From: Raillietiella orientalis | Lineage: Eukaryota | Length of the DNA stretch: 64,000 nt | Assembly: GCA_036172245.1 (NCBI GenBank) | Contig: JAYWIR010000098.1 | Location: 124,001 to 188,000, forward strand | Direction of reading: 5' to 3' | Part shown: positions 3,414 to 56,924 of the stretch, piece by piece | How the letters are laid out: each line of letters starts with the position of its first letter | Numbering within the stretch: the first letter of the stretch is position 1 | Translations under genes and position numbers: made by a program | Notes under the pieces: model-generated | Seen by the model: only the letters and a program-made list of their open reading frames with translations | The model's database searches: none | What the model was told of the DNA's origin: nothing

Positions 3414-3433
3414 GAGGAATCACTTTTTACTTC

Positions 3434-7482: not shown

Positions 7483-7483
7483 T

Positions 7484-10726: not shown

Positions 10727-10838
10727 TCGCCGAATCCCCGCTGTGGAGAGCGGACGTGCTTTTCCTGCGCTCCGCCTGCGTGGAAAGCGAGTGTTTTTTC
10801 TTCTTGAGTGATTTGTGCGTGCAAATCGTCGGTGTCCG

Positions 10839-21900: not shown

Positions 21901-22010
21901 GCTGCGTCCCGGCGTCCCGGTAGGTCCCGTGCATAAGGCCGTGAGCGAAGCCTGGTACCGCAATTGTAGAGTTTTTTATAAATAAACGACATGGGCGTAC
22001 CCGGGTGGCA

Positions 22011-32314: not shown

Positions 32315-34835
32315 CGCTGTAAAGAGAGGACGTGCTTTCCCTGCGCTCCAACTGCGTGGCAAGGCGAGTGTTTTTTTCTTCAGTGATTTGTGCGTGGACA
32401 TCGTCGGTGTCCGATGGCAGCGTTGACAGAGGACACCGCGATGGAAGTAGGCGTGATGGAGGCTTGTTCGTCTCCACAGCCTACTGGATCAGGGGCATCC
32501 GCCCCGGAATCGTCCCCGGCGACGACGAGGTCATGGAGCGCTATTGTGGCCGCGCCTAGCGTGGAACCCATGGCCGAGATGGAAGCCTACAAGAAAGCGG
32601 GGTATAAACCCTCGCTACTCTACAAGGAAGGCAACCTTTTCGATGGGCGAACTGCACGCGCCTTTACGAAGGCGCTGCAGGACGCCAATATTTTTGAAAA
32701 AGATCTCGACGGCCTCTGCGTCCTTAGCAGCGGGCAGCGGGTCGACGTGGTATGCAAGGATATCACCTTGGCCCGACACCTGATCACCGACCCGCTGATC
32801 GTTGATGGTCGGAAGATCTTGCCGATAACGATGGACCGCTCGGTGGTGGTCCATCTCACTGGGATCTCCAGTCGAATGACTAGGTCAGCGGTTCGAGAAC
32901 AGCTACAAAAGAACGGAGAAAAGCACGCGTTGTGGCCGAAGTCCACGATTTTCCAAGGCTACATTAGCCTTTTCGGAGGTCAAGCTGCGACGCGTATCAC
33001 AGTAAAAGAAAGTGGTGCGCTTCCCCACAATCTGGAGGTTTGCCAAGAAGCGGTGGACCTCTGGTACGTGGGGAAACGCCAATTTTGTGGCTACTGCAAT
33101 GCAGTAGGGCATCTACGAAAAAGGTGCTCGAACATTGTGTGCCACCTATGCGGCGAAAAGGGTCACGTTCGGCGCGTTTTCCACAATTGAACCACCCCGG
33201 TGCCCCCTGCCGCCAAAAAGGCGCAGGGAAAACGTGGAAAGCTGGTAGAAAGACCAGCTCGCGAAAATGGCCGTTCCCAACTGCCAGCCTCGTTTCCTCC
33301 CGTGCAGACGTCAAAGGAAAGAGCTCCCGTGAACGCGGAAATGGAGGAGGGTTGACAGCTGGTTCGGGCCAGAAAAAAAAAAAAAAAGAAATTAATGCCA
33401 GAAGAAAATTCGGAGAAGAAAACTGCCGGCAACAAGGAAAAAGCCGCGCACCTTTCAGAATAAAAACAACTCCACGAATGCTCGGTGGCACTGGAACGCT
33501 TAGCCGTTCCTGACGAGTCCGCCCGCGGCAATGTTCGCGGAACAGCTGATGCGGACGGATGAATACTCGCGTGGACGAGCCCATTCTACGTTTAGAGGGT
33601 GAGAAGACGCGAGACTCGCGCGCCGACAGCCAGGACGCCGCGCTCGATAAAGTCGCGGAGGAGCCCGCGGCAAAGTTCGCCGTCAGCGGTGACGCCGCGC
33701 TCGATAAGGTCGTAGAGCAGCTGGCGGCAACGGTCGCCAGTGGCGTAGACGCGGCCTTCGAGAAAGAGGCGGAGGAGCTCGCAGCAACACTCGCCGAGCG
33801 CGAAACCCCGTCGCGCAAGGGCGTACGCAGGTCGGCTCCTACGAAGAAGGCCCCCGCAGGTGAGTGCGACCTGGGGGCCGGAAGCGGAACCTCCTCCTCG
33901 GAGGCACCCCCCAGGAAGTCGGGACGCAAATCCCAGAAACCCAGGTGGCGCCTTCCCTCCACCAGCGAGGAGGAGATGCCGGAAGGAAGCGGCAGCGAGG
34001 AATCCCGGAGGGGGAATACCCACGCCCGGAAGCCGTCGAGTCGGCCACCCCATGGAGGAGCGTGAGCAGGGGGGTGAAGTCCTCCCTGCAGTCGCGAAAC
34101 CTGAGCAGCCCGAACCCATGGAGGAGAGCGAACAGATAGGAGCGACTTCAACTGCGGGTGATCTGGCAGACGCACCAGCACCGATGGAGGAGGAGAAACA
34201 GGTGCCTTCAGTACCTGTTCCCTCTCTTCCTCAACCTAGCGTCCAGCCCAGCAGGTGGCGGACGCCGCATCGCCGTTTTCCCAGGAATAACACCTAACTC
34301 GCCGGTCGCCGTCGGATTCGCGCCGCCTGTTGGAACGTCAACGGGCTGCGCAACGACGGTAACAGGCGAGATACGGCCGACACCCTGTGTGAGCTCGAAC
34401 TGGCGCTGCTGCAGGAGATCCACGTGATCACCGCGGCAGACGCCCAGGAGATGCAGACGATCGCGGAAGGTCGGTGGTATTGGCGATGCGACCTCCGCAA
34501 CACCTGCGGGGTCGCGTTCTTCGTGAAGCAGGCCATCGACGCTGCCGTAAAGGGAGTGCGGTTTGATGACGACCGTCGGATCGGTCTGCTGATTCTCAGC
34601 TGGTCCGACTCGATCGACCTAATCGTCACAAACGTGTATGGCCCCAGCGGCAAACAGGGGTACGGCGACCGCCCCAGGCTGCTGCAAACCCTGAAACGCG
34701 ACTGGCTGGAGGATACCAATGTGCGAAAGGCTCACCTGATAGCGGGAGATTTCAATTGAGTGCGGACGTGTTTTTCTTCGCTCTCGCCTCCGTGCTTTCA
34801 TCCGCTTCATCTTGGCGTCGTACATTTTGACGACG

Positions 34836-36755
34836 ATGTCGACCCAACCCGAAACTACTGAAGTTGGAGGGACAGCATCCGGATCTGCAATCGCGGAACC
34901 GACGGCCGCCTCCACTTCGTCTTTCTCGCCAATAGAGAGGAGTTTTGCTAACGTTGCTGCCACAGCAGCCGTCAAAGGGAAACCACTCGACGAGTCGGAG
35001 TTGCGGGCATACGTAGCCCAAGGCTATAGACCTGCTCTCCGATATAAGGTGAGTGGCTTTCTTTCTGCGCGCGACGGAAATCAGTTCAACGATGAACTGA
35101 CCCGTGTTGGCATGCGGGAGGATGACCTTCTCGCCATTATGCCCGTGAAAGACATGGGCTATTTCAAGGTGCGTTGCAAAGACGCTGCACTTGTGCAACG
35201 CTTGCTGCGCACCCCGTTGTCGATCCGTGGCCAGAAGGTCTTCCCGGCCGCCATGGACGACTCATTTGTGGCGGAGATTTTCGACATCGAGTCGGAAATC
35301 TTTGATATATATATTCGGAACGCGTTGGTGAAATTCGCCACGGTCCATGCGCTGTGGAGGATGCGTAGCAACCTCAAGGACTTCCCGTCCATACATAGCG
35401 GAGTCGCTGCAGTCCGGCTTACAATGCCGGACCGCCGTCTGCTGCCCAGGAAACTACAGGTGAAAGACACGGTCGTTCACCTGTGGTTCGTGGGCAAAGA
35501 AAGAACGTGCGAGCAATGCGGGAAGGAGGGGCATTGTTTGGATAAATGCCCCTCTGGAAAATGCCGTTATTGCAAACTATCCGGGCACCAATTAAAAAAT
35601 TGCCCGGATCATTTGCCAAAAAAGGCAGCCGCGGAGCTCCATGTTAGAAAACAAAGCGCGGATAAAAAGAAAAAATGGGCGAAAAACCTGGAGACCCCAC
35701 GGCAGAAATTCCGAAAAATCGCGAGGCGGAATGTCGCATCAAAGCAGCAGGAAACCTCGCACGCGAAGCCCTGCGCGCCCCCTCTCGCGGCAGGGAAGCC
35801 GCAAAAGAAAGGGTGCGGGGAATCAAAGGCAATGGTAAGTCCCCCTAGGCGCAATAGCTGTCCTTCCCAAGCACGCCCGGCTCTTTCGGAGTTCCAGCAA
35901 CCGGCGGGGACGTCAATGGGCAACGGCGGTAAGGACACTTCCCGTACCGTCAGATCCATTCCTTCACCTCCTGCAGTGGCTGAGAAGCCCAAATCGGGTA
36001 AGAAAGGTTGTGCCGTTTCGACTTCGAAAGTCAGCCAAGAAGAATCCGCGTCGCGATCCAACACCGCGAAAGCGGAGAAAAATCTCACGCCGTCGCAATC
36101 GGAGAGCAAGCTCTCGACTGGCGCGGATGCCATGCCATCGAAGGGATTAAAAGCCCTTCCGAAGGCAGCGTCCATGACGAGCGTGTCGAAGCCATCCAAA
36201 GTGCTCCCGTCCAAAGACGCGGATGGCTTCAAAGATGGCAATGGAGCACAATCTCCATTTACGGCGCCACGCGAAGTGAGGAACCGTAATGAAGTAAAGA
36301 AGACTTCAGCAAAGCTCCCTCGTGCAACTGCGCGTGAGCACGCTGAAAACGCGCGCGCCGGGAAAGCAGCCGTCACCAAAAGCGATGCTCTGGTGACGGA
36401 AAACAAAAACAGGACAGCTGTCTATCCAGCAGAACCGGTCACTGCTTCGCGGAAGGCCGAATCCCCATCAAACATACGCCGGTCGGACTCCTAAATGGAT
36501 GCCGTTCTGATCACCGAGACGAGGACAACTCGTTCAAAAGCGTGTGCGCGCCGATCAAATGTAGGCAGCCAGGCAACGCTCGCCGCGAAGCAACGCGAAG
36601 TCTCCACGAAACCCGACGGGGTTCAGCCTGGCGTGGAGGCATTACATACATGCAGCACGACAGAGGACGGTGGCGACCGTCCCCTCCAGCCAGTCGTGCT
36701 GCTCGCCGTCTGCTTGCCGGATAAAGCGAGCAAAAAGTCGCCACCTTCCCAGTAG
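34836..36755 (+). pseudogene. Element D' ORF1 (2 CCHC knuckles), in-frame stop at 36492-36494
   Basis: ORF 34812-36494 (CEQCGKEGHCLDKC, CRYCKLSGHQLKNC) plus 36495-36755. Confidence 0.9.
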
Positions 36756-36757
36756 TA

Positions 36758-39700
36758 ATGCGGGAAATCGCGTCTTCTCCTCTTTTGTCCGTAACGTGTT
36801 GGAACGGGAACGGACTACAGAACGACGAGAAGAGGCGATTAGTCGCCAACGCCCTGCGCCTCTTCGACCTCGCGCTCCTGCAGGAGATTCACGTAATCTC
36901 CGACGAGCAGGCAGCCGAAATCGAGGAGCGCGCAGGCGGAACGCTACATTGGCGGTGCGGCGGCGCACACACGTGCGGCGTCGCGTTCCTCGTAAGAGGA
37001 AAAATGGCGAAAGCGGTGCGTAGTGTTCGTTTCGATGACGAGGGACGGATAGGCCAGCTTGTCATCAAGTGGTCCGAGTCCATCGATCTCGTCGTTACGA
37101 ACGTCTACGCGCCGAGTGGCTCTCGCTACCTCGAAGAAAGAGTAGCCTTCTTTGGTGAGGTGCAGAGCCACTGGCTCAACAACTCCGGTTTCCAAGTGGC
37201 GCACCTCGTCGCTGGGGACTTCAACGTCCGCCTGCTCTCCGACGATTGGAACCGCCCGAGGGAACGCGCGCTGCCCATCGAGATGTGCGCGTCCGTGCAC
37301 GCCGCCAACTTGATGGTTTGCGAACCTGGAATGGAAAGATCGCTCGATCACCTTTTCCTCGATGAAAACCTGCATACGCGTGTGGGTAGGAGAGGAAGAT
37401 TGTTGACTAGGCTTTCTGAGCACCACAGGTTGGAGTTTGAGATCCATCCGCCAGGCAGGGGGCCTCCGTTGCAAAACTGGAGGATGCAGGCGGATTCGCT
37501 TAGCCAACCGGAGGCTGCGGAGCTTCTACGTGGATACCTCCGAGGCTTTGCCATTCAAGAACTTGCGGACTGGGACGATCTCAAAAGATCTGTCCACGAG
37601 TTCTGCTGCCAATTCCCCTTGCCCTGGCTTCCACGCGGTTTCGGAGAGGGCGTGGCCAACAGTAGAGACCTTCTACAGGGCTGCACGTTTTCGAGACGCC
37701 CGGGTCTCGGGCGTCTTGCAGATTTCAAGGAGAGGGCCGAGCGCCAGGTCTGGCAGTCCGTAGCAGCATGCCTGTTGGACGATAAGGGCCAGGAATGTTC
37801 GGCCCCAGCCGAAGTACGCCGCATTGTGAGACAGTACTACTTTTCGCTCTACGCGGAATTCCCGACGGAGGATATTCTTTCTGAGATACTCCTGTCTTAG
37901 GGTGCTCGTGTTGTCGGCGAGGAGGAACGCGAACGTCTCAACGAGCCCTTCACGGCGGATGAATTTTCGTTTGCAATCGCTGGGCTGAAGAGACGAAAGG
38001 CGCCAGGCGAGGATGGGCTCCCTGCAGAGTTTTATCAGTGCTTTGCAGTGGAGCTCATTCCATTGATGCTGAAACTCGCGACGCTGATGAGTGAATCCGG
38101 GAATGTCCCGGATTCCTTCCGCTCAGCGAAGGTGCGTCTCCTGCCGAAAGGCGGAGACTTGCGTCAACTTGACAACTGGCGTCCGATCACCTTGGTGAAC
38201 TCAAACGTCAAGTTGTTTTCCAAGCTGTGGGTCGCGCAATGAGGAAGTATCGCGGAATCTGTGGTGAGCCGGGAACAAACCTACGCGGTTTCGGGACGAT
38301 CCATGGAGGCGAACATCCTTTTCCGGCGTACATGGATGCAGCTGCAGGAAGTTGTGGCGCAGCAAAGCAGGCTGCTGCGAAAGTCACTGCCGCAGGCAAA
38401 AAGAACAGGCGCCGACGGCAGGAGGGAACGCCAGGTGCCTTGGCGGTCGCGGTCGATCTCCACAAGGCGTTCGACTGCGTAAACCAAAAGCTGCTTTTGG
38501 AGCTTATGGAACGCCTTGGGTTCCCGGCGCAACTCCTGCTGTATTTGCGCGCGTGCTGGCGCCACGCGCTAACCTGCATCACTTTTAGCGGCTGCCGCGT
38601 GTATGGTATTCCCGTTCGTAGGGGCATCCGACAGGGCGACAGCTTAAGCCCGTTGCTCTTCAGCATCTTCTTTGAGTTGGTGCTAAGAGCATACAGGCTG
38701 ACGCTGTCTCACTTGCCAAGCTCCTGCCCGGGAACGCCTGCCGTGGCCGCCTACGCTGATGACCTGCTTCTTCTGCTCCCCATGTCCACCCCGGCGTCCA
38801 GTGTCGAGGATTTCTTCGACCTGATTCGTCGGGGAGCGGGCATGAGCGTGAACAGAGAGAAGAGCGTGGTCGTTCCTGTGGGTACGTCGTGGGAGGGGCA
38901 GTCCGACTGGATCCGCATGGGGATCCTTACGGGCGGGTACTTTAAGTACCTTGGCGTTCCGTTGGGCGCTTTCGGCGCAGCCGAAGCGTGGGCGGACTGT
39001 CTTCAGAAAGCAGAGTTGGCGATCAGCCCGTTCTTTAACGGCAAGTTTACCTTGCAGGAACGGGCGACTATTTGGAACACCTTTGTGGCCCCCCTCCTCC
39101 GTCCCCTGTTTTTTGTTTTGGACCCCCCCTATGCGGCAAAACAGCGGGCTAAACGCCTTCTCAGGAACGCTCTCTGGGGTCCGGCGAGATCCAGGATCCG
39201 CCTCAAAGATTTGTTAGCTCCGCGTCGGGATGCTGGTTTGGGTATCTTGACAATGGAGCGAATCGGACTGCAGGTGCAGTTCCGACTGCTGGCACTGTGT
39301 GCCCAGCTATGGACATCCCCCCTGTGTGTGCCAGCCCGCATTCTCCTGCGGAGATGCGCCGGCAGCGGAGGATTTCTCTCGCTTTTGCCGGGCACTCAAT
39401 ACAGGAAGCGGGGTTTCGGGTTTCCATTGCGGCAGTTGACCGCACTTCTGGAAGCTCACTCGTGGATCTCCTGCCGCCCAATGAACTTTGAAGCTTGGCG
39501 GCAGGAGTCTGTTGAATCCTGGGCGGCGTTCCAAGGAATACGCCCTGAAGATCTTCGATCCTGCGTCAATTTTTTCCACGATCCTTGGAAAAAGTACTGC
39601 AGGACGAGGTGAAGTTTTCTACCCTGGCTGCCACGCCTCTTGCCGCAGCGCTGTCTGTTCTCAGGGCAAGAAACGACAGTTACCAACCGGCGAGGTGGGA

Positions 39701-40349
39701 GGTTTCCTGCACGATAGCGGGAAAAACCAAAATCCTTGGCGCCTGGAAGACGAGTGAGATGGCGGACGCCGCTACTCCTCGTGTTACTGCAAAGGGACTC
39801 CTCCGGTGGGCAGAAGAACTTGCTGTCACCCCCGAAGAACTTGTAGTCCCTCCACAGTGTATTGACAGTTCGCTGCTCCCCCTTGCTTGGAAACAAGCCG
39901 TGCTGCTTTTCGTTCACTGGGGTTTTAAGTGCAACGAGCGTTGGCATCGTGACTCCGGGGGACTTGCGTCTGCGAACTGCGTTCGGTGCGGATCGACGGA
40001 GTCGATTCCGCACCTACTTCCGGACTGCGGTGTCCTACATGGACTGTGGCGTAGGCTGGCAACAGCATTTATGCATCCCGTGGACACCGCAAGAGACTTG
40101 CTGCGACGATTCTTCACGCAGAGCGGGCTGTCACGCAGCGCAAGGATTGCAACCATCGGTTGCATACGCGCGATAGTTTCCGTCCGCCAGGCGCTAGAAA
40201 TCAACGGACAGCACCAAGAGGTAATCAGCAAAGCATCCTTTTACATGAAAGCATCCGCTAGATGGCCTCATTTGACAGAGAAGACAAAAAGGAATCTCGC
40301 CGCAATACACCGCCGGTTTACACACCCTCAGCAACGGCCAACCCGTTGA
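36758..40349 (+). pseudogene. Element D' ORF2, disrupted
   Basis: ORFs 36758-37900, 38048-38242, 38227-39612 (DLHKAFD, YADD), 39585-40349. Confidence 0.92.
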
Positions 40350-41912
40350 TCATTGTCCTGCCCTCCATAAACTAATTTTGTATTTTCTTTTTACATCCGC
40401 GTCCCTATAGGCTCCGGAAGATTTGAGGTGCTCATCGTTTGAATCCCCGTGAGTACGGAGCCTAACCAAAAACCCTTCACCCTTCTTTCCAGTTTTTGAT
40501 TTTTGTTTGTTTCCCCTTATTCCCCCCACGCTGCGAGCGGTTTGTTTACCAGGCCTGCGTGCCGGTAATTTTTCTATGTTCTTTGTCGTTCTGTTGGTTG
40601 GAGACATTGTCCCTGACCAGTTTATTATTATTAATAAACGCCCCGGCGTGAACGGGTGATAAATTTCAATCTCCGCCTGCTAACAGGTGAGCCGGAAACA
40701 CAAGTGAACGCGATGAACGAGTTCTGCGCCGCCATGCGTGCGCGCAACTTGTTTGCGGTGAGAGGGGAATGGTCCGCAGCATCGACCACGTCTTACTCGA
40801 CGCTGACTTGTGTTCACGTGTCGGCAAACGGGGGAGGGTTGCGTCGACGTTGTCGGACCATTCCCGGCTAATTTTCGAGATGCGGCCTCGCGACAAAGGA
40901 CAGTTATCCAGGGATTGGCGTCTGCCGCGGGACTGGACGCGACCCTCAGGTGCAAAGGAACACCTTCGGGAATACCTGAGAGGCGTCACGTTACTGAATC
41001 TCCAGGCCTGGGGGTTCTTTAAGAAATCGCTCCGCGAGTTCTGTGAGCAGTTCCCCCTGGATGGCCTGCCCCCTGGATTCCGCGAGGGTGCTCGCAACCA
41101 TCGGGCCTATTTACAGGCTCGTAGGTACGAGAGAGCCGCTTATGTCCGTCGCCTGGCCGAGTTCCGGGCCGGGGCCGAACGCCAAGCCTGGCATTCCGGG
41201 TTGGCCAGCTTGCTGGTCGACCAGGGCCGGGAATATCCGTCCCCGGCGTCGGTACGGCATCTCGTGCGAAGTGTTTATTGTTCCCTCCACGCCAGTGAGC
41301 CCCCGGATCGGAACGCCTCTCCGCGCTATCTTCCGGATGGCGCCCCGGCAATAGGGGAGGAGGAGATGAAAAGCCTCGACGAGCCTTTTACCACCGGCGA
41401 AATTCTCGCCGGTATCAAAGGCTCAAGAGGCGTAAAGCTCCAGGGGAAGACGGCTTGCCCGCGGAGTTCTTTTAGAGCTTCGCGGAAGAGTTGGAACCCC
41501 TGCTGCTTGAGTTGATCAGGCTGATCCGAGACGGAGGCGATGTTCCCGCCTCGTTTCGGTCAGCCAGAGTGAGGCTCCTTCCGAAAGGGGGAGACCTCAG
41601 GAATTTACAGAACTGGCGTCCGATCACAATCGTGAATACGGACGCCAAGTTGATAGCAGGGCTATGGGCTTCGCGTCTGGGGCAGGTGGCAGAATCCGTA
41701 ATTAGCCCGGAGCAGACTTATGCTGTTCCCGGGAGAAGTATGGATGCCAACCCCTTCTTCGCAAGCACATGGGTGCACCTGCAGAGAAGAGAAAAGAAAG
41801 GGATAGGGAAAGTCGGCAACCCCACATTGGGGCCGTCGGCCTGGCTGGAAAGGGACCCCCGGGCAAGGTAGGGGGCCCCAGCGCTCGCAATCGACCTCCA
41901 CAAGGCGTTCGA

Positions 41913-44900
41913 TCTTCACCCATATTTCGCCGGGGCGTTTATTGTAAAATAAACATTTACAAAGACGTGCGGTGGCTGGTCCATTGCTCCAGCCACGCAC
42001 GAAGAAACACATAGCCTGCCGGGTCACCGGTTCGCAAACCGGTACGGTCCACCACGGCAGCAGTGGGAAGGGGGAAAAACAAAAAACAAAACAAAAAAGC
42101 AAAGAAAAGTTGGGAGGGTAAGGGAAGGGATCACAGTTGCTGGTGGGGCCGTTGCATCCTTTGCAGGATGCCGGCAAGCTCCTTCTGAATTCCTGGATGC
42201 AGGTGGGGCTATCGGAACGTTTTCCTCAGGAACTGGGAGGCTGGCTGGATGACACCCTGGTCGCGTTGTCCTCCCGTAGCCTTGATCCAAGCGGTGATGA
42301 TCCCGCGTAGGCAGCACAAAGCTGCTAACGAGGCTGCTGGCCGAAGGGCGTCGGCAACGAAGAGGGCTTTCAGTGCGTGCCTGGGGTTGCCGTAGGGGAT
42401 TTCGATGTCCGCGTTAAAGCGAAACCAAAGGGGCCGAAGGTCAACACAATCCACTAGCAGGTGGGGGAGGGACTCCCGTTCCCCACACCTGACGCAATTG
42501 GGGTCCACCGCACCCCAGGTCCAGTGGTGTCGGCGGGCGTTGCAGGGGAGTCCCCAGTGCTGCAACAGGAGAGCCGACTCCTGCCATTTCAAGGAAAGGG
42601 CGGAAGTGTTCATGAGCACCGGGGGCCACTTCAGATGTTCAATGGGAACATCGAGCAGCGCGCCCCAGCGCAGAAGTTTATTGGGAGGCGTAGTCGGGGT
42701 CGCAGCGTCTGTTAACTGGCCCGTCTTCCACTCTCCTATCTTCTTCTCCTTTCCGGAGATTGTAACTGAAACCTCCCACTTTGCCGCAACATCGCTGTCC
42801 AGATCTTCCATCAGGGAGGGCAGCGCAACAGCGAGGGGGGCTCTTCCTGTTCACGCTCTCTTTTTTGGATCCTCAAGGATCTCGCGTTGCGTTCAACTTC
42901 TGTAACCCCAAAGAGGAACCTTCGTTCCTGTTGGGAGCGTTGCATGCCGAACTGTCCCCACGTTCGAACGGTTTCCTGCAACCAAGCACTACCGTTCAAC
43001 GGCCGACAGGTGAGCAATCCTGGGTTTTTCCGATACTGCGCAGCCACCCTCCGTAGCAGGAGTCCGCATCGGTTGACGCGGCGACGGAGTGCAAGAAACG
43101 ACGTCAGTCCCGTCTTGCCGGTGGCTTGCTGGAGAAGCAGAAGTGCAGGGACGCACCAACAGGTGCACCTTTACTCTGGAACGAGTGCCGACAAGCGGAA
43201 CTGGAGTTGAAGCTCCAGCCGCTCCAGTGTCAGCAGGCCGAGACCACGACCCCGACGAGGAGCGCACAAGTCCTTTAAGCGGACTCGGGCCCTCCCGTTG
43301 CGTAAAGGGCGATACGGAGGAGGTCCTTTGTCCGCTTTTTAATCCTCTCTGTGAAGGGGCAAACAAAAAGCAGGGAACGGAGGAGAGAAGCCGCAAACGT
43401 GTTCCAAAACGCGGCCCGTTCAGGCAGGAAAAACCTGCCGCCTGAGAACGGGCCGATCGCCGTCTCTACTTTTGGAGGCAGCCGGACCACGCTTCCGCAG
43501 GGGAGTTGTTTCTCAACGGTACACCAAGGTACTTCAAGCACCTCGTCGTGGGGATCCCCAGACGGACCCAGTCCTGCTGCGCGGCCCACGCCGCACCAAC
43601 TGCCATCACGGACGACTTCGCCCTGTTCACCGTAATTCCGGTTCCCCGATGCAGCAGGTCGAATAACTCCTCGACCGCCGCAGCCGGGTTGGACATAGGG
43701 AGTAGCAGCAGAAGGTCGTCCTCATATGCTGAAGCATCCGGCGTACCGGCACAGTCGTGCGGCAGGTGCGCCAGAGTTCCCCTGTACGCTCTCAGTACCA
43801 GCTCAAAGTAGGTACTGAAGAGGAAGGGGCTCAGGCTGTCTCCCTGCCGGATTCCACGCCGCACCGGCACGCCGTGCACGGTCTGCCCGCTGAAAGTAAC
43901 ATTGATGTGCGTGTCGCGCCAGCAGGAGCGCAGATAGGCCACTAATGAAGCCGGGAAGCCCAAGCGTTCCAGAAGCTCCAGAAGGAGATTCTGGTCGACG
44001 CAATCGAATGCTTTCCGCAAGTCGATTGCGACCGCAAGGGCTCTCTCCCCCACCCGACCATTCAACCCCCTACCTGCGCACGAACCGGAATTCCGGCTGC
44101 GCACCAAACTCCTTTCATGTTGTAGCTCTAGCCAGGTGGAAGCGTGGAACAGGTTCGCCTCCATGCTTCGCCCGGGAACAGCATATGTCTGTTCTGGGCT
44201 GATCAAGATGTTGGCAACCTGTCCCTGACGCACTGCCCACACCTTAGCCAGCAACTTGGCGTCCGCATTCACTATTGTGATCGGACGCCAGTTGTTCATG
44301 CTCCTCAGATCTCCTCCCTTAGGGAGGAGCCGCACCTTTGCCGAACGAAACGAGGCGGGAACGAAACCGGTTTCGCGTATCAGCAAGGTGAGTTGCTGTA
44401 CAAATGGGGTAAGCTCAGACGCGAAAGTTCGATAAAACTCCGCGGGCAGGCCGTCCTCCCCTGGAGCCTTTCGGCTCTTGAGCTTTACGATGGCCGATAG
44501 AATCTCGTCCATCGTGAAAGCCTCGTCGAGGGTCTTTCTCTGCTCCTTCCCGATCGCTGGAGCGCCTTCTGGAAGCAGGAGTCGTGAAACGTTCCTCTCC
44601 GGAGGTGCTCTGGCATACAGGGAGGAGTACTAACTCCGCAGCAGGCCGCGGATTTGGGCAGGTGCCGAGTGCTCCTGGCCCTGATCGTCCAGAAAGCTGG
44701 CCGATCCGGACTGCCAGGCTTGCCTCTCGGCTCCCGCTTTGTATTCCGCCAGCCTGCGGATGACGGGGGTCCTGGCGTAACGACGGGCCTGCAGGTAGGC
44801 TCGTTCGTTACGGACCCCGGTCCCAAAACCCGTAGGTCAGCGGTGCGGAGGAAACTGGTGGCAGAACTCCTGGACCGACCGCTTGAAGCGGTCCCAATCC

Positions 44901-47479
44901 TGGAGTGTCCGCAGACTGAAGCTCCGTATGAACGTGCGGAGATGTTCCGCCGCGTCCGAAAGCTTCAGCCAGTCCCCTGGAAGACGCCAGGCTGACGAGG
45001 GGGGGCCTTTGTCGCGCGGATGGATCTCGAGGACTAGTGGGCGATGGTCGGACAGCTCGCACGGTAACTTGCCGCGCCTGCCCACGCGAGGGCACAGGTG
45101 CTCGTCAAGAAACACGTGGTCAATGCTGTCTTCCATCCCCGGTGCATTGGCCAACAGATTACAGGTGTGCACCGCCATGCACACCTCGTTGACCAGGTCA
45201 CGCTCGGGATTCTGCTCATCTGGTTTCAGGCGAACGTTGAAATCGCCTGCTACCAGATGGGCATTCCACACGCCTGCTTCGGTCAGCCAGTCTTGCCGGA
45301 GGGCAAGGAAAAACTCTTTTTTTCGCCCTCCTGTTCATCAGGTCCTTGCCGCTCGTTGCGTACACGTTCGTGACGATCAGATCGATCGAGTCGGACCACC
45401 TGAGAGTCAGCTGGCCGACACGACCGTGAACGTCGAACCTCACGCCCCGAGCCGCGGCCTCGACGGCTGGCCGAAGCAGGTAGGCGACACCGCAACTTTT
45501 CGCTCTCCCACACCTGTACCATAGCCGCCCTTCGGAGATCCGTTAGATCTCTTGCGGTTGTTCTGCAGAGATCACGTGGATCTCCTGCAGCAGCGCAAGG
45601 TCGTAGGACTCCAGAAGGGCGGCCATGTCTCGTCTCCTGCCGGCGTCTGTCATGCCGTTCACGTTCCAAACGGCGATGCGCAGACGAAGGCGGGAGGAGA
45701 TTCCCGGCATTACTGCTGGGAAGATTAAGGTGTGGGGAAGCCCTCCTCTTGCGAGGCGGGCGGGATGTCCATGGGGGTTTCGGCCTTCTCAGGCACCTGA
45801 GGCACCTGTTCGGCCTCCACCCCGTCCATCCCCTCCGTGTCCGTGCGTGGGAGTTCCTCGGGGGAGGGGTCCCGAGAGTTTCACACGCTCATGGCACCCT
45901 CGCTTGCGGAAGCCATCTGTTACCCTTCGACGGGGGAGACGAGCTTCCTTGGCTTTGTGGACTTACGTCCAGCCTTCTTGCGCGGTGCCGTAGAAACGGA
46001 GGCTGCGCTCCCGGTCTCCACCTCGGGGTCGAAAGTGGGGGACTCCTGAGGGGAGGCCGGACGCCTTACGGCCTTCTTGCCAGCCTTGGAGGGTTCTGGC
46101 TGCAACGAGGCTTCCAGCTCCTACGCGGCTCCCGCGAAGGCTACGTCATCGATGGTGGTGTCGATGACGGACGCCGCCGCCGGCTCGCTCCCCTCGCTGT
46201 TGACTGTGTCAACAGAGGGGAGGTCGTCGGTAGCGGAGAGTTCTTTCCGGCAGCGTTCGGCAACATCGAGAACGCGTTCGACAACGACGCTGCACTCTTT
46301 AATTATCGCGCTACCCTGCTCTTTCTTCTTCTGTTGGTAGACGATTTTCTTTTCCATCCTCCTTTCCTTGTTTGATTTTTTGGCTGTTGCCACTTGCCAC
46401 TCAGTCTCCTGGCCGGCTCCCTCAACTTTTTCGGCGTTGGTCGCGGGGGTCTCGGGTGCGGCCTGGGTCTTGGGCGCGGGTGGCACAGCCTTCGCGGAAG
46501 CTTTCGCCGCCAACTTTTTCTGCAGCAGCCGGGCGCGTTTTTTAAGGTTTCTCTTGGAAACCACCCGCACTGCTGCTTTTGGGCACACCTCCCTCGTGTG
46601 GCCCATTGTGCCGCATACTTGGCACTGCACATTGGGACACCTCTTTTTAAGGTGGCCCGACGTATTTCAGAAGCCACAGTATTTCGGCTTCCCCACATAC
46701 CAGAGGTCGACGGTTTCGCCTTCGAGCACCAGTTTGTGGGGAAGAGTGCAGCCCTCCCGAACGGTCACGCGCGCAGCAGTGAGGCCGTGTTGCAGCCCCG
46801 TGTAGTCCTCGAAAGCACTAACTTTTGTCCACTGCGCGTGGACCGTTGCGAACTGTTCCAAAGCGGCGCGAACCTGTTCTTTGCGCATTCGCGCGGTTAC
46901 GCCTAACAGGTGGACCACCATTTTGCGGTTCGCCGTAGTGGGGAGGAGACTGCGCGTCCCCATCACAACGGGGGTTTTAAGCAGTCGTTGCGCCAGTTCT
47001 GCATGTTTGCAGATGACCTCAACGTACTGACCCCGCTGCGTATGGTCATAGCGCTAAGCTGCTCCCCTTTCACATCGAGAGCGCGCATCCCCTTCGAGAA
47101 GGCGCGCGCGCTTTCTTAAGAAAATAAATTGCCTACCTTGTAGAACAATGAGGGGTTGTACCCCTCCTCCACATATGCTGACAATTCCGCCGCGGCTCCA
47201 GGCGATGGCGCCGACACAACGGCGCTTCACGCCCGCGCTGCAGCGGGGACCGATTCTGTATGGGCGGTTGCCCCCACCTCCATCGCCTCTGGGAGCGACG
47301 TTGCCGCCGCCCCCTGGCTCTCCATCGCCTCTGGGGGCGGCGTTGCCGCTGCCCCCTGGCCATCCCTGCTGGTCGCGTCAGGCATCGCTGCCTGATCGAC
47401 CACCGAACCACACGACGCTTGCACTGGGGGAGACTTCCTGGCACGAGAGGCCCCGAGAAAACCCTTCCGCTCTAGAGCG
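41913..47479 (-). mobile_element. Element E: full-length (~5.6 kb) with 14-bp TSD
   Basis: CACAAGGCGTTCGA at 41899-41912 and 47480-47493; ORF1 ~45710-47440 and ORF2 42131-45710 (YEDD variant), both disrupted. Confidence 0.95.
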
Positions 47480-49614
47480 CACAAGGCGTTCGACTGTGTA
47501 GACCAGGAACTTCAATTGGAGCTCCTGGGTCGCATGGGCTTCCCACCCTCCCTGATTTCCTACCTGCGCTCTTGCTGGCGGAATGCGATGATTACCGTCT
47601 GTTTCAGTGGACAGAAGGTGTATGGCGTGCCGGTGCGGCAGGGCATCAGGCAGGGCGATAGCCTCAGCCCCCTGCTTTTCATCACCTTCTTTGAGTTGGG
47701 GCTGAGAGCGTACAGGGTGACTTTGGCCCAGTTGCCGAGCTCGTGCCCCGGCACGCTCGCCGTAGCAGCGTACGCCGACGATGTTCTGCTCTTGTTGCCA
47801 ATTTCTACCCCGGCAAAGGCGGTGGGAGACTTCTTCGATCTGCTCAGCCGCGGGACCGGACTGCAGGTTAACAGGGCGGAGTCGTCGGTTGTGCCAATAG
47901 GTGCGGCGTGAGCAGGGCAGGAGGACTGGGTCCGTCTGGGGATCTTCACGGAGAGGTGCTTCAAGTACCTTGGTGTGCCGTAGGGGGACTGCTCCCTAGC
48001 GGAAGCGTGGTCCGGCTCCCTCCAATAAGTCGAGACGGCTATCGGCCCGTTCCTGGAAGGCAAGTTTCACTTGCCTGAACGGGCCTGCGGTTTGGAACAT
48101 GTTCGCGGCTCCTCTTCTCCGTTCCCTGCTGTTTGTTAGCCCCCCCACAGAGAGGATCAAAAAGCGGACGAAGGACCTCCTTCGTATCGCCCTTTGGGGC
48201 TACGGGAGGCCCCAAGTCCGCCTGAAGGACTTGTGCGCTCCGCGTCGGGACGGTGGTCTCGGCCTCCTGACATTGGAGCGGCTGGAGCTGCAGCTCCAGT
48301 TCCGGATTTTGGCACTTGTGTTGGAGTTGTGGTGCACCTGTTGGTGCGTCCCTGCACGTCTCCTCCTTCAGCAAGCCACCGGTAAGACGGGACTTACGTC
48401 GTTTCTTGCACTCCATCGAAGCCGCATCAACCGATGTGGGCTTCTGCTACGGAGGGTGGCTGCGCTGGCAAGGAAAAATCAAGGATGGATCACCTGTCTC
48501 CCCGCGAACGGTAGTGCCTGGTTGCAGGATACCGTTCGTATGTGGGGACAGTTCGGCATGCAACCCTTCCATCAGGAACGAAGGTTTCTGTTTGGGTGTT
48601 ACAGAAGTTGCACGCTCCGTGAGGTCCTGGAGGATCCTAAGAAGAGAGCGTGGTCAGGAAGAACCTCCCTCGCTTCTGCGCTGGACTCCCTTGTGGAACA
48701 TCAGGACAGCAATGTTGCGGCGAAGTGGGAGGTTACATTTAAAATCTCCGGGAAGGAGAAGAAACAGAGAGAGTGGAAGACGGGCCAGCTAACTGATGCT
48801 GCGACCCCGAGTACGCCTCCTAATGGACTTCTGCGCTGGGGAGCGCTGGTGGATGTTCCGATTGAACATCTGAAGTGGCCCCCGATTCTTATGAACACTT
48901 CTATCCTCCCTTTAAAGTAACAAGAGTCGGCATTCCTGTTGCAGCACTGGGGACTCCCCTGCAACGCCCGTCGACACCACTGGACCTGGGGAGCGGTGGA
49001 TCCCAATTGTGTAAGGTGCGGGGAACGGGATTCCCTCCCTTACCTCCTAGTGGATTGTGTTGCCCTTCGGCCCCTTTGGTTCCGCTTTGCCGCGGCCATC
49101 GGTATCCCTTGCAGCAACCCCAGGGAGGCACTAAAAGTCTTCTTCGCTTCCGACGCTCTGCGGCCTGGGTCCTCGATAGCAGCCTTTTTCTGCCTTCGTG
49201 GGATCGTCGCCGCCTGGAGCACGGCGACGGGAGGACGTCGCGATCAGGAAGCCATCCAGTGCACCTCTGAATTCTTGAGGAGGGCGTCGCGATGGCCCCA
49301 CCTAGATGTTCACAACAAACAAGACCTTGCCAGCATCCTGAGAGGGATGATTCGGCCCCAGCAGCAACAGTGATCCCTTCCCGTTCCCTCCCACACTTTG
49401 TTTGTTTGTTTGTTTGTTGGTTAGTGTTTTTTTTTTTTTTTTTTTGTTTCTCCTTTTTACCCTGCTGCCTTGGTGGACCGTACCGGTCTAGAAACCGGTG
49501 AATTGGCAGGCGCCGTAATTCTTAGCTTCTGGCTGGAGCATTGCCACAGCCATTAATAATTTGTTTACAAAGTTTATTTTTTTAATAAACGACTCGGAGA
49601 ACTCCTGGTGAAAA

Positions 49615-49787
49615 TCGAATGTTTTGCGCAAGTCGACAGCGACGGCGAAGGCTCCCGCCGATTCCGCCCCACCCTCTACCGGGTCTCTCTGGTCAGAGGG
49701 GTGCTCGAGGCTCCCTTGACCGTCCTGTGCAACGCGCTGTTCCAACTGCCACCATGTGCTGGCGAGGAGCAGGTTGGCTTCCATGGT
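49615..49787 (-). mobile_element. Short F-family RT fragment (TMEAN...AVDLRKTFD)
   Basis: ORF 49488-49784 matches the N-terminus of ORF 30812-31648. Confidence 0.85.
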
Positions 49788-52147: not shown

Positions 52148-55144
52148 TTTCATACCCGGGTGCGCCGAGGCGTTTATTTTTTAGTAAAAAGCAAACAAGC
52201 AAGTGTAGGGCTATAGTTGCTTCAGCGTCCGAAATAAAAAGTCTGAAATTGCCGCGTAGCTATCCCGCAGGCTGGCGAGTTCGACTTGGCAGCGGGGGGT
52301 GAAAGGACAAATAAAAACAAAAAGAGAACACTATTTACAAAAGCAGGGAGGAGTTGGGGAAGGTAACACATTCCTCTGGAGTCGTCCTCTACATCCTTTC
52401 CAGGAGGCCTGCAAGTTCGGTGCGCATATGTCCCAAATGGGATCATCTGGATGCCGTCCTTAGGAAACGTAGGGCGTAGCAGAAGATGTCTCTGTCGTTT
52501 AGTCCACCAGTGCCGATGCTCCAGGCCGCCACAATCCCTCGTAGGCAGCAGAGGGCTGCAAGGGCTGCGACAGGCCGAAGGGCGTCACGCACAAAAAGGC
52601 GCGTCAGAACGTCTCTAGGGTTGATCGTGGGTGCTCCTAGGGCCGTTGCGAAACGCAACCACAGTGGCCTGAAGGCAACAGAGTCAAGAAGTAGGTGCGG
52701 GAGGGTTTTCCGTTCCCCGCACCTGACACAATTTGGGTCCACCGCCCCCCTCGTTTAGTGCGAACGGCGGGCGTTTCTGGGGAGTCCCCAGTGCAACACG
52801 AGGAACGCCAACACCTGCCACTTCAGATGGAGGTCCCTGGTAGTCTCCAGCACCGGGGGCCACTCGAGTAAATCCATGGGGATGTTTCGCAGCTCGCCCC
52901 AGCGCAATAGTCCATTTGGTTGGGCACTTGGGGTCGCAGCGTCTGTCAACTGGCCCGTGGTCCAACCACCTTGTTCTCTCTCTCTTCCAGAGATACTGCA
53001 CCTGACTTCCAATTTTGCCAACTGGCTACTGCCCGGGTGCTCCCTATGGTGTAACAGAGCCGTGGCAAGGGAGGTCCGCTCAGCCCACGCACTCAAGGTG
53101 GACTGCACGATGATTTCCTTCAGCCAGCGGCTCTTGTGATAGGAGTGCAGCATTCGCTGCCGCAACTCCGGGCTCGCTTCCTAGATCTGGTCCCAAGTGC
53201 GAAGGCTTTCCTGCATCCAGGAAGTACCGTTCGCGGGCCGACAGGAGATCCAGGTGTTCGTTCTGGTCAGCTTCGCCACTCGCCGAAGTGCCAGTCCGCA
53301 GTGAAACAGGTACCGGCGTTTGCGGCGCTCTAGGAAGGTAGAGAGTCCCGCACAGCCGCTAGCTCGCTGAACTGGGCGTCGTGCAGGCTCGCACCAGCTG
53401 GTGCTCCATAGCTTCGCTACTAGAGCTTGAGTCCTGGACTGCAGCTGCAGTTCCAGCCACTCCAGCGTGAGGAGGCCGAAGCCTCTATCTCGACCAGGGG
53501 CACATAAGTCCTTCAAACGGACTTGGGGCCTACTTCTGCCCCAAAGGGCGATTCTGAGGAGGTGCTTTGTCCGCTTTCTGACACCGCAGGGTAAAGGGCA
53601 AACAAAAAGCAAGGGGCGATAAAAAGGGGCCACAAACGTGTTATACACCACGGCTTGTTCCGGCAAGAAAAACTTGCCATCCAGGAACGGGCCGATCGCT
53701 CTCTCGGCCTTTTGGAGGCAGCTAGATCACGCTTCCGCAGGGGAATATTCCCTTAACGGCACATCAAGGTACTTTAAGTACGGTACTGTAGGGATCCCGA
53801 AGCTAGATCTTTCCAGCTGCCCTGCCCGCGATGAACCAGCTGCAACCACGGACGACTTCGCTCTGTCCACCTCCAGCCCTGTCCCTCGACGCAGCAGCTC
53901 GAAAAAGATTTTGACCGCCGACGCCTGGGTGGACATGGGGAGCAGCAGCAAAAAATCGTCCGCATAAGACGCCACGGCCGGTGTACCTGGGCACACGCGC
54001 GGCAGACGACCAAGAGTCTCCTTGTATGCCCTCAGCACCAGCTCGAAGTAGGTGCTGAAAAGCAAGGGGCTCAAGCTGTCACCCTGCCGTATCCCGCGGC
54101 GCACTGGCACACCGAACACTTTTATTCCCCTGAAAGTAATATTGGTTAGCGCGTCGCGCCAGCAAGAGAGCAGAAAGGCCAATAAAAAGGCCAAGAAGCT
54201 TAAGACTTCCAGAAGCTCTAGCCGGAGATTCTGGTCGACTCAGTCAAGTGCTTTTTGCAAATCGACTGCGAATGCGTGAATACCCTCGCGCTCCCCACAA
54301 TCCCGCGAACCACCAGCGGACGTCCCGCAAATTGGGGTGCCGACATTGTTTTTTTTATTTATTCTACATCTCTGGAACTCGAACCAGATGTTCGCGAAGA
54401 GCAGGTTGATGTCCATGCTACGCACGTGAACAGCGTATGTCTGCTCTGGGCTGATGAAGCTTTCCGCCAACCGCCCCATTCGTTCAGACCATAGCTTCGC
54501 AAGCAGCTTGGCGTCAGCGTTCAAAACGGTGATCGGAAGCCATTTGCCCATGCTCCGAAGGTCTCGTCCCTTAGGAAGGAGACTCACCTTTGCCGAACGA
54601 AACGAAGCGGTAACGTCACCTGTCTCGCGTATGAGGAATGTGACTTGATGTACCAGGAGGGTTAGCTCAGCCGCGAAAGTTTGATAAAGCTCCGCGGACA
54701 GGCCGTCCTCCTTTGGAGCCTTGAGCCTCTTGAGCTTTCGGATGGCCGAAATGATCTCGTCTATCGTGAAAGGCTCTTCGAGGGACTTTTTCTCCTCTTC
54801 TCAGATTGCTAAAGCGCCTTCTGAAAACAGGAGTCGTAAGGCATCCAGCTCCAGAGACTCCCTGGCGTACATGGAGGAGTAAAATTTCCTGAAAATCCCG
54901 CTCTTCTGAGCAGGAGACGAGTGCTTCCTGTCCTGGTCGTCCAGCAAGCTGGCGAACCCGGATTGCCAGGCTTGCCTCTCCGCTTCTAATCGATATTCTG
55001 CTAACCTGCGCATGTCGGGGATTTTTGCGTAACGTCGGGCCTGAAGATAGCACCTTTCGTTTCGCGGCCCCTCTCCAAATCCTGCAGGTTGGCGATGCAA
55101 AGGGAACTGTTCGCAGAACTTCTGGACCAACCTTATGAAGTGGT
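52148..55144 (-). mobile_element. Element H: ORF2 (linker to 3' end), degenerate
   Basis: ORFs 54801-55403 (part), 54240-54587, 53727-54194 (YADD), 53181-53666, 52443-52742; 3' AATAAACGCCTCGGCGCACCCGGGTATGAAA. Confidence 0.9.
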
Positions 55145-55145
55145 G

Positions 55146-56924
55146 CACCTCGGCATCGGCGCTCGACGATTTCTTCGAGTTGCTGCGCCGTGGGACAGGC
55201 CTCAAGGTAAAAAGGGCCAAGTCCTCGATTATTGTATCGTGCTCGTCGAGGGCAGGACGGTCTGACTGGATCCGCTTGGGGATCCCGACGGGCAGGTACA
55301 TCAAGTACCTTGGCGTTCCGTTGGGGGACTTCTGCTCTGCAGAAGCCTGGTCCGACCGTCTCCAAAAGGTGGAATTGGTGATTGGCCTGTCCCCAGACGG
55401 CAAATTTTAGTTGCAGGAACAGGCCACGGTGTGGAACAATTTTGCGGCCCCCCCCTTTCGCTTCCTAATTTTTGTGTGTCCCGCTTTCCTTCAAATTAGG
55501 ACATGGACAAGGGGCCTCATACAGAAAGCCCTTTGGGGCAATCGGAGGCCCCGCGTCCGAATTAAAGACTTGTGCGCTCTACGCAGGTGGACTTGATCTT
55601 CTCACGTTGTATCGCATAAAGCGACAGCTCCAAATTTGGAAACTCGCCCTTGTGGCAGAGAACAGGCAAGCACCTTGGTGTATTCCCGCAAGACTCTTCG
55701 CTCACATGGAAACCGGCTGCTGCGGTTTGACCACAGTCGTGGTAACTAACGACCGTAGTCTGAAGTATTTTGGGTTTCAGCTACGCGATCTGGTCTCCAT
55801 GGTGAGGGAGAATACGTGTATCTCCTGCATCCCCTCGCACTGGATTACCTGGCTACAGGAGTCCGTTTCCGCGTGGTCAAAATTCAACGTCTTCAGCGTT
55901 GTGGTGTTCTGCCTCCGTCGAGGCTGGTACGCTGGTCAGCCACTGCTGGAGTTCATATGCAACCCACGGAAACTTTTGTGGGCTTCCTCCAATCTCCTTG
56001 CTCCCTTGCTGTTCTTCTTAAGGAAAGTCAGAGTCAGCCAATAGGAGGCATCGTGGGAAGTGTCCTGCCTCATCGCAGGCAGCAAAAAACGGATGAAGAC
56101 GTGAACGTCTCGGGAACTAGCGGACGCTAGTACCCCGAGTGTCCCGCCGAATGGTCTTATACGCTGACGCGAGCTGCTCGACATGGAGAAGAAGAAGTGG
56201 CCCTCAGCGGCTTCTGATAACGGCACTTTTCTTCTGCAGTTGCAGGAGACGGCGTTTCTTCGGCTCCATTGCGGACTTTCAAGCAAAGCGCACCTGTCTC
56301 ACTGGACATCGGGGAGTGTGGATGCCAACTGCGGTGAGTGCGGGAATCGGAGACCTCCCCCCACCTAATTCTACAGTCAGTTGCCCTTGGTCAGATGTTT
56401 TTGGATCCACTCTGTTTGTCCCTTAACATTCCGGGGGACAACCCGAAGAACATTTTTAGACACCTGCTGATGAGTGACGCCATGCCAGCCTCTGAAAGTG
56501 TAGCAGTGCTCTGTTGCATACGCAGAATCGTGGATAAGTTGACCGCGTCGAGGAGAGTCCGCACCAGTTGGAATGCCATCCACTGGGCCGCCATCTCTTT
56601 AGAGATGGACTGCCGTTGGAGCCGGCTTTGAAAACATTTACAGGCACTTTTACACCTAACCTAACCCCCCCTTTCCTTCCCTCCAAAAACATTGCACCCT
56701 TCAGGCGTTTTTCTTTTTTTTGTTTTATTTTTGTTTTTCCCGCCCCTGCGCCCGTGAAGAGGACCTTATCGGCCTGGGGGTCAGTAAGGACCAGTGCGGC
56801 TAGACAGTAAAACATCTGTGCTGACCCAAACAGAAAAGTTTTGTTTACAAAAAAGACTTTATTATGTAATTTTTTCTGTTTAAAAATTTTAATAATAAAA
56901 GCCCCGGCTCACCCGGATGAAAAA
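55146..56924 (+). mobile_element. Element G3: 5'-truncated G copy, last element of the array
   Basis: Matches G2 (TSASALDDFFELL..RYIKYLG); AATAAA at 56894 plus CCCCGGCTCACCCGGATGAAAA. Confidence 0.9.

Follow-up and report, generated by a model that had tools for sequence, protein, structure and literature searches.

A LINE lineage of Raillietiella orientalis that probably targets the motif A codons of other LINEs

Site-specific LINEs and the affinities of the nested elements

Site-specific LINEs are natural models for programmable, safe-harbour DNA insertion, and their known targets are rDNA, telomeres, small RNA genes, microsatellites and a few transposons. R1Bm, whose specificity is reported to be determined by its endonuclease (EN), inserts into a 14-bp region of the 28S rDNA (PMC1919474). 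According to a survey of sequence-specific LINEs (PMC4494074), the Tx1 clade comprises L1-like APE LINEs in which close families have different fixed targets, several of them other transposable elements: Tx1L targets Tx1D, the crocodilian Tx1-Mar targets Mariner-N4_AMi, Tx1-8_Crp and Tx1-4_AMi target LTR retrotransposons, and Tx1-9_AMi targets Harbinger. The survey's list of targets, which differ from those described below, consists of DNA transposons, LTR elements, snRNA and 5S genes and microsatellites. Zepp and ZeppL, of the green-algal L1 clade, nest in themselves, and their tandem arrays are described as being made up mainly of 5'-truncated 3' ends. A literature search, with coverage outside subscription journals and Repbase Reports, found no LINE that targets the reverse transcriptase (RT) or EN codons of other, including related, LINEs.

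Here we analysed a 64,000-nt stretch of a R. orientalis contig (the window) in which LINEs are nested within LINEs. The ORF2 of these elements carries Exo_endo_phos and RVT_1 domains with a weak zf-RVT match, and the ORF1 carries a CCHC knuckle. In the element C, the domains were matched by PF03372 (E-value 1.5e-13) and PF00078 (E-value 1e-22); in the element E, PF00078 was matched (E-value 6e-21) and all parts were present by tblastn. The order of the domains in ORF2, with an N-terminal AP-endonuclease-like domain followed by the reverse transcriptase, is that of APE-type LINEs, and the elements are flanked by perfect duplications of 14 bp (E), 8 bp (I and M) and 17 bp (C) without terminal repeats, as in LINEs.

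The likeness to R1 and the R1-clade insect LINEs lies in the APE-type enzyme, the cutting of both strands at one fixed sequence, the multicopy conserved target and the precise insertion (PMC1919474 for R1Bm). The target in the window, on the other hand, is the coding sequence of other LINEs, whereas that of R1 is rDNA, and the Pfam domains found here are PF03372 and zf-RVT, as in L1/Tx1-type elements. The nearest solved structure for both the EN and the RT was human L1 ORF2p (E-values 3e-7 and 4e-22). A PDB search with the EN, which as a sequence-only comparison is a weak test of R1-clade membership, gave only L1-EN and bacterial exonucleases (14 matches at an E-value of 0.01 or less). L1-EN was the best of these 14 matches, among which the endonuclease structures of R1Bm and TRAS1, presumably present in the PDB, were absent. 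The resemblance to R1 is probably convergent behaviour, not membership.

The comparison with Zepp also brought out differences. Most inserts in the window are full length, with complete 5' ends in E, C, I, M, N-D and B', and the nesting occurs at fixed internal sites, each lineage having one exact site, a fixed duplication length and a fixed orientation.

Relatives outside the window were few. A protein search with the ORF2 of C gave one close match, P0001, which is 69% identical and uninterrupted across the KAFD codons; the other matches, and likewise the nearest named relatives, were at most 28% identical. The RT of a divergent LINE in the window (A) had a single weak plant match in the protein search, only generic RT clusters were found in the protein atlas, and Rfam gave no match. 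A metagenome scan with the conserved 3' 16-mer picked out 118 loci, but the remainder of the 3' end was absent from all of them; they are chance matches or an unrelated palindromic repeat.

Family E at the KAFD codons of three hosts

The element E is a full-length LINE of 5,567 bp (41913-47479, minus strand) lying antisense in the host B', which is on the plus strand. E comprises a 5' UTR, in which a 42-nt sequence is tandemly repeated, an ORF1 and an ORF2 with APE, RT and zf-RVT domains, the ORF2 being decayed into at least six frame pieces; its 5' end reads CGCTCTAGAGCGG, and AATAAA stands 20-26 nt upstream of the 3' terminus, which carries a short A tail. The element is flanked by two perfect 14-bp copies of CACAAGGCGTTCGA on the plus strand, the left one (41899-41912) adjoining its 3' end and the right one (47480-47493) its 5' end. 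In the reading frame of B', they span the H-K-A-F-D(GA) codons in RT motif A. The cut falls in the codon for the last D of D-x-x-K-A-F-D, an aspartate that aligned with D606 of human L1 ORF2p, and the leading D aligned with D600, which we take to be the motif-A catalytic aspartate.

The sequence CACAAGGCGTTCGA occurs four times in the window against none expected from shuffles. The two copies that do not flank E, at 19906 in the element D and 38461 in the element M, are homologous sites that are uninterrupted and hold the sequence once each; the two copies beside E are therefore a genuine target-site duplication, as the initial annotation had it. Furthermore, both duplication copies are the host family's own sequence, identical to that of D, and so were derived from the target and not from the element RNA.

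A second junction is at the 5' end of E1. E1, the 5' 1.1 kb of an E-family element (7483-8614, plus strand), has the same 42-nt repeat as E and is 76% identical (7484-8575) to nucleotides 1-1051 of E. It adjoins G1, the 3' half of a G/H/K-family LINE (5463-7482, minus strand) that begins exactly at its KAFD codons. The site in G1 is AGTAAAGCTTTCGA, the reverse complement of which, TCGAAAGCTTTACT, occupies 7469-7482, with the E-type 5' end tCGCTTAGAGCGG immediately after it. Because E and E1 begin at identical nucleotides, both are full length at the 5' end, and the junction falls at the host position used by E, give or take one extra T, in agreement with the annotated position. A second copy of the G1 duplication was sought and none was found, so the 3' junction of E1 has been lost. 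A later rearrangement removed the 3' part of E1.

The third junction involves the host B' itself. Its B-family part (32315-34756, 40671-41912 and 47494 to ~48073, plus strand) is interrupted by M and E and is 90-95% identical to the B-family element N-D, and its remainder, E3 (48074-49614, plus strand), is 84-87% identical to E and 44-69% identical to N-D. B' is therefore a chimera, with the first 4.26 kb from the B family and the last 1.54 kb from the E family. The switch at 48071-48076 is marked by the informative sites, of which 414 are E-type and 100 B-type after it, against 94 E-type and 1286 B-type before it. It is because of this chimerism that B' closes with an E-type 3' end, the terminus of which, ...GGTGAAAA, is at 49614. 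The 5' end of B' adjoins the element L at the B-family site and its 3' end has the E-family site. Such flanks would be expected if two neighbouring insertions had later recombined, each lineage keeping its own site. We considered B' as an ordinary single insertion and rejected this, as the flanks are mismatched and the family switch is sharp.

At 49614, the E-type 3' end ...CTGGTGAAAA stops, and it is followed at 49615-49628 by TCGAATGTTTTGCG, the antisense of F. This RT fragment (49615-49787, minus strand; 173 nt) comes from a third LINE family and ends in VDLRKTF-D. Both E-family 3' junctions fall directly before TCGAA on the element strand, and the three target 14-mers, in B', G1 and F, have in common only AA(A/G) and TTCGA; on both points the initial annotation was borne out. 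A likeness of the E 3' junction GTGAAGATCGA to the antisense of the VDLH codons of D was also considered and rejected as chance (4 matches versus 5.2 expected).

All four readable E-family termini (E 5' and 3', E1 5' and E3 3') thus lie antisense at KAFD, in three events within one window, which upholds the claim that the family targets the RT KAFD motif at three loci. In the working criterion of Kojima, a LINE is sequence-specific when more than 20% of its flanks are alike (PMC4494074); within the window, 4/4 E-family termini are at KAFD, in three hosts. The 14-bp duplication is seen once, because E1 keeps only its 5' junction and E3 only its 3' junction. The occupancy of the sites is partial, with 7 of the 10 recognisable KAFD sites in the window empty.

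Could one ancestral E-in-LINE junction have been copied to the three places by segmental duplication, gene conversion or ectopic recombination? Recombination between LINEs does occur here, as seen in the B' chimera and in the 15-nt flank that is identical in the elements R and S. However, identity is only 61-72% among the hosts and 76-87% among the inserts (E1 76% and E3 84-87% to E) at and beside the junctions, on both sides, which indicates independent events among different host families. Moreover, homologous recombination preserves collinearity and has no way of bringing an element terminus up against a KAFD site. We regard a copied junction as very improbable.

Could the coincidence be luck, with E merely preferring the LINE island for chromatin or regional reasons and using a short TTCGA nick motif? 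Since the window from 5.5 to 56.9 kb is almost all LINE, LINE hosts are expected, and the G/H/K, J and L families enter LINEs at various positions. On the other hand, by hand arithmetic for a host of about 5.5 kb and two orientations, the chance that two further junctions fall within 1 nt of the first is P ~ (3/11000)^2, or roughly 7e-8. A generous null would let E choose only among the window's TTCGA sites, of which there are 138 counting both strands, 11 of them at the KAFD position. Even then, the probability that all three junctions fall at KAFD, to within 1 nt and in a single orientation, is P ~ 4e-4, again by hand arithmetic. A similar coincidence recurs in the I/M and B families. Luck is consequently an improbable account, if a little less so than a copied junction.

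A third alternative is that RNA-DNA homology mainly guides the targeting, the E transcript reading through into the antisense KAFD flank of its donor copy and its 3' extension annealing to the homologous site in another LINE, which would set where priming occurs, with little endonuclease specificity beyond TCGA. All copies of E lie in KAFD sites, and read-through would thus never lack a matching sequence; the palindrome TCGA at the junction can be assigned to either partner. For R1 and R2, co-transcription with the target is said to strengthen specificity (PMC4494074). A weaker point is that the 3' tail of C, ...GGTTTCAA, resembles the I/M target ATTTCAAT and is possibly a transduced flank. 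Against this, the two duplication copies around E carry the host family's sequence, and mismatches between the three target 14-mers reach 6 in 14, so that they would anneal poorly with a fixed read-through. The second nick is also precise, the 5' junctions of E and E1 agreeing within 1 nt, for which a 3' extension of the RNA cannot account. We consider RNA guidance unlikely, though the least unlikely of the three alternatives.

The comparison of these sequences leads us to consider family E as a probable sequence-specific APE LINE of the L1/Tx1 group that targets a short site in the RT gene of other LINEs, including its own relatives. Its endonuclease would nick the sense strand of the host LINE at 5'-AAR-NNN-TTCGA^Y-3', in the last Asp codon of D-L-x-K-A-F-D, and the freed 3'-OH would serve as the primer, with reverse transcription beginning right where the short A tail of the element starts. 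A second nick in the other strand, 14 nt off, would give the 14-bp duplication, and the outcome would be a full-length, antisense E and a host RT split just after motif A. The anatomy, the perfect duplication, the orientation and the shared host position of all four termini in three diverged hosts are visible in the sequence itself, whereas the order of the nicks and the protein or RNA feature that reads the site are inferred.

Sites of the other lineages and the growth of the island

Fixed-site behaviour is not peculiar to E; at least two further lineages, I/M and B, have their own sites inside LINEs. The I/M lineage inserts at the GDFN codons of the APE domain in the sense orientation, with an 8-bp duplication of ATTTCAAT. 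M (34757-40662, plus strand) is full length and lies in B', with duplication copies at 34749-34756 and 40663-40670, and I (22435-28343, minus strand), also full length, lies at the same GDFN codons in the host P, with copies at 22427-22434 and 28344-28351. I and M are 94.3% identical, whereas their host flanks are only 68.5 and 70.9% identical, and these two insertions are independent.

Five junctions place B-family ends at a single 15-bp site in the EN-RT linker, in antisense orientation. The target 15-mer GCATCGCCGAATCCC, the antisense of the host Q, is found at 9597-9611 (plus strand), after the 3' end of R at 9596, and again at 10724-10738 between the 3' end of S and the 5' end of N; homologous 15-mers follow the 3' end of D (22008-22022) and precede the 5' end of B' (32300-32314). 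R and S have an identical 15-nt flank. N-D (10739-13511 and 19011-22007, plus strand), a B-family LINE interrupted by C, adjoins the host P at its 3' end and a 15-nt remnant of the host's site at its 5' end. The 15-mers at its two ends match at only 11 of 15 positions, so a further recombination is needed to explain them.

C is a full-length LINE (13512-18993, minus strand) of the sister lineage of E, lying antisense in N-D in the EN-RT linker, beside the LQDWD codons, between 17-bp copies of ACGCTCCGGAATCTCCA (13495-13511 and 18994-19010). E and C are sisters in the RT tree, and their insertion sites are different.

With fixed sites also for the I/M and B lineages, the window holds a small radiation of LINE-homing LINEs by which a nested LINE island is built. 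It is plausible, though we hold this tentatively, that these lineages are hyperparasites of LINEs, each with its own exact ORF2 site (motif A for E, GDFN for I/M and the EN-RT linker for B and C), and that the process is self-feeding and both builds and maintains LINE-only islands. If so, each insertion would disable a competitor or an older relative and create new targets, and the islands might act as chromosomal landmarks, like the Zepp clusters. Retrotransposon competition is clear in that each insertion splits the RT or endonuclease of its host.

Catalytic-motif codons of other LINEs, if they are indeed what such a lineage is aimed at, would be a new class of target. The case would illustrate a shift of specificity between sister lineages, as between E and C, and would offer a concrete mechanism by which LINE-only islands grow. 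The specificity determinants of L1-type endonucleases could also be mapped well with such a set of close relatives that differ in their exact targets.

Conservation of the target sites was uneven. When 4323 segments of 20 nt were ranked by conservation, GDFN ranked 206, KAFD 269 and the B-family site 2235; on account of the B-family site, we rejected the notion that the elements always aim at whichever ORF2 segments are most conserved. Because the B-family site is unconserved among families, the targeting of the most conserved catalytic codons is not a general rule. No common insertion site was seen in the window for the G/H/K family, J or L. LINE sequence fills nearly all of the window between 5.5 and 56.9 kb, and 57-62 kb is a unique stretch.

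E-family junctions at the KAFD codons

The full-length LINE E (41913-47479, minus strand, 5,567 bp) lies antisense in the host LINE B', between two perfect copies of the 14-bp repeat CACAAGGCGTTCGA (41899-41912 and 47480-47493). Because this repeat had no matches in shuffles of the window, and because its two further matches are the single-copy homologous sites of the uninterrupted elements D and M, it is a target-site duplication made on insertion. Across the site, B' (plus strand) reads I-D-L-H-K-A-F-D, which includes the codons of reverse transcriptase (RT) motif A. The 5' end of a second E-family element, E1, is found at 7483/7484 (tCGCTTAGAGCGG; E counterpart, CGCTCTAGAGCGG), and the adjoining TCGAAAGCTTTACT (7469-7482) corresponds, in antisense, to the opening 14 nt of G1, a minus-strand host that begins precisely with its KAFD codons. 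An E-type 3' end, ...CTGGTGAAAA (...GGGTGAAGA in E), stops at 49614, and TCGAATGTTTTGCG directly after it is the antisense of F, a 173-nt RT fragment reading V-D-L-R-K-T-F-D. The initial annotation had placed three E-family junctions antisense at the KAFD codons, and the coordinates and flank sequences bear out all three (in B', G1 and F). These three events all come from one 64-kb window; the 3' part of E1 and the 5' part of E3 (the E-family 3' portion of B'), with one junction each, were lost to later rearrangement.

Three of the ten host elements with a recognisable KAFD site are filled (B', F and G1), and seven are without an insert (C, D, I, M, E, H and L, the site in L being mutated to TTCAA). 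The divergent LINE A (231-5460, minus strand), which lies in DNA of 49% GC and has an RT ~30% identical to that of C at the amino-acid level, carries EKVFD with TTCGA (1791) at the equivalent position, empty of insert. A 42-nt tandem repeat in the 5' UTR is a further family character common to E (47278-47360, 2.0 copies) and E1 (7604-7711, 2.6 copies), and it may be promoter-related.

What does the insertion do to its host? When VDLRKAFD is aligned with human ORF2p (chain offset 237), the leading D corresponds to D600, which we take to be the catalytic residue of motif A, and the last D to D606; it is the codon of this last D that the E insertion cuts. Whichever Asp is catalytic, the insertion interrupts the RT directly downstream of motif A and kills the host copy.

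INDEPENDENCE and chance

Could one E junction simply have been copied three times? This is excluded by the strong divergence of both the hosts and the inserts: B' is 72.4% identical to G1 over 300 nt and 61.1% identical to F over 173 nt, and relative to E, the identity is 76% for E1 and 84-87% for the E-type 3' part. The odds of two more junctions falling within 1 nt of the first are ~7e-8 by arithmetic (5.5-kb host, two orientations). TTCGA occurs 138 times on both strands of the window, 11 times at the KAFD position; for an enzyme reading TTCGA alone, three of three insertions at KAFD has P ~4e-4.

Fixed sites in other lineages and the chimeric B'

The LINEs I (22435-28343, minus strand) and M (34757-40662, plus strand), both full length and 94.3% identical, lie in sense orientation at the endonuclease G-D-F-N codons of two different hosts, whose flanks share only 68.5% and 70.9% identity. 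Each sits between its own pair of 8-bp duplications ATTTCAAT (22427-28351 and 34749-40670 with duplications included), and the pair was scored as a 6-kb inverted repeat in the repeat search. The B family uses one 15-bp target in the EN-RT linker (GGGATTCGGCGATGC on the host sense strand), antisense, at five junctions, of which three are 3' ends (R, 9596; S, 10723; D, 22007) and two are 5' ends (N, 10739; B', 32315). R (9341-9611) and S, which are 90.7% identical with the same 3' end and an identical 15-mer, may not represent independent junctions. At 10698-10765, the S 3' end, the 15-nt target GCATCGCCGAATCCC and the full-length 5' end of N follow head to tail, an arrangement that looks like a second hit on the first insertion's duplicated target. 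The 15-mers at the two ends of N-D, the B-family LINE interrupted by C, are unlike (11/15 identical), for which further recombination is the only explanation that we can offer.

C (13512-18993) is antisense in N-D between perfect 17-bp duplications (13495-13511 and 18994-19010), beside the LQDWD codons of the EN-RT linker. In the RT tree C groups as sister to E (support 93/95), and its site, a single case (n = 1), differs from that of E. The tail at its 3' end, ...GGTTTCAA, is similar to the I/M target and may have been transduced from the flank of a donor copy. No common insertion site was found among the catalogued ends of the G/H/K family, J or L, and K has its 3' terminus in AT-rich DNA that is not LINE sequence. 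In all, seven of the 13 catalogued 3' ends are at a re-used site. At 55100-55160, J (minus strand) and a 5'-truncated K (plus strand) meet head to head, the break in J lying ~12-15 nt downstream of the site used by C in N-D.

With its two nested inserts spliced out, B' was aligned to N-D, E and C. Its first 4.26 kb are 84-96% identical to N-D and 43-73% to E, whereas the remainder is 44-69% identical to N-D and 84-87% to E. Informative sites place the switch at 48071-48076 (1286 N-type vs. 94 E-type before it; 100 N-type vs. 414 E-type after it). B' is a chimera, with 48071-48076 as the recombination breakpoint from B family to E family, and the E-family identity of its 3' part upholds the earlier label of an E-type 3' end at 49614. 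The 5' end (32315) adjoins the minus-strand host L at the site common to other B-family ends, and the 3' end adjoins F at the E-family site; a single insertion is ruled out because these flanks come from two different hosts. The simplest account is that a B-family insertion in L recombined unequally with an E-family insertion in F, and the chimera with its flanks supports lineage-specific sites.

Conservation of the target may explain two of these sites. When an alignment of 8 elements was ranked by conservation in 4323 windows of 20 nt, KAFD and GDFN came 269th and 206th, i.e., in the top 5-6%. As a rule for target choice, conservation was rejected, since the B-family site ranks 2235.

Proposed mechanism and element make-up

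All 13 LINE 3' ends carry AATAAA 20-26 nt before the terminus (e.g., 41913-41975, minus strand), next a 4-bp CGCC/GGCG hairpin in which one pair covaries (CG in 9, AU in 3, UA in 1), then ...CCCGGGTG and 0-5 A-rich bases. The signal, the hairpin and the short A-rich terminus suggest that the LINE RNA is cleaved and polyadenylated normally, reverse transcription probably beginning at the very start of the tail. From the duplication geometry, the E priming nick would fall at AAR-NNN-TTCGA^Y in the sense strand of the host, and the second nick on the other strand, 14 nt off. Targeting guided by a read-through RNA flank is less likely, as each copy of the duplication has the sequence proper to the host family, and as many as 6 of 14 positions vary among the three targets. 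The same two observations favor recognition of the site by the E endonuclease, as for R1Bm, in which the endonuclease cleaves a 14-bp region, first on the bottom strand and then on the top (PMC1919474); R1 and E have the 14-bp precision in common.

PMC4494074 describes Tx1-clade families as target-specific, several inserting into other transposable elements (Tx1L into Tx1D, Tx1-Mar into Mariner, two families into LTR elements and one into Harbinger), and PMC8226300 describes Zepp elements nesting in existing copies. We found no paper on a LINE that has its fixed target in codons of another LINE's RT or endonuclease in a search without most subscription journals, Repbase Reports and the target-listing supplements of PMC4494074.

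The LINEs form an unbroken nest on both strands from ~5.5 to 56.9 kb (GC 0.55-0.63) within AT-richer flanking DNA (GC 0.40-0.50). CpG o/e is 0.9-1.1 throughout the window, in LINE and non-LINE parts alike, giving no sign of CpG methylation decay. No Rfam matches and no host genes were found in the window. The reference copy C is near-intact and combines an ORF1 bearing a CCHC knuckle (the Pfam match itself being from the N-D ORF1) with an AP-endonuclease domain (PF03372, E 1.5e-13) and an RT domain (PF00078, E 1e-22); a zf-RVT match in the C-terminal part of E ORF2 is weak (E 0.0011, below the Pfam cut-off). Since the nearest solved structure for both endonuclease and RT is human L1 ORF2p (E 3e-7 and 3.6e-22, respectively), the window LINEs are assigned by homology to the L1/Tx1 group, a placement at the level of group rather than clade. 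In the protein library, the sole close relative is P0001 (69% identical, on a short metagenome contig), the others being ≤28% identical. Scanning metagenomes with the 3' 16-mer gave 118 loci, of which none was homologous. Eight of these (L011, L013, L016, L033, L035, L040, L049 and L051), on eukaryote-like contigs, belong to an unrelated repeat in which the palindrome AATAAACGCC..GGCGTTTATT recurs several times, picked up only because it shares the 16-mer.
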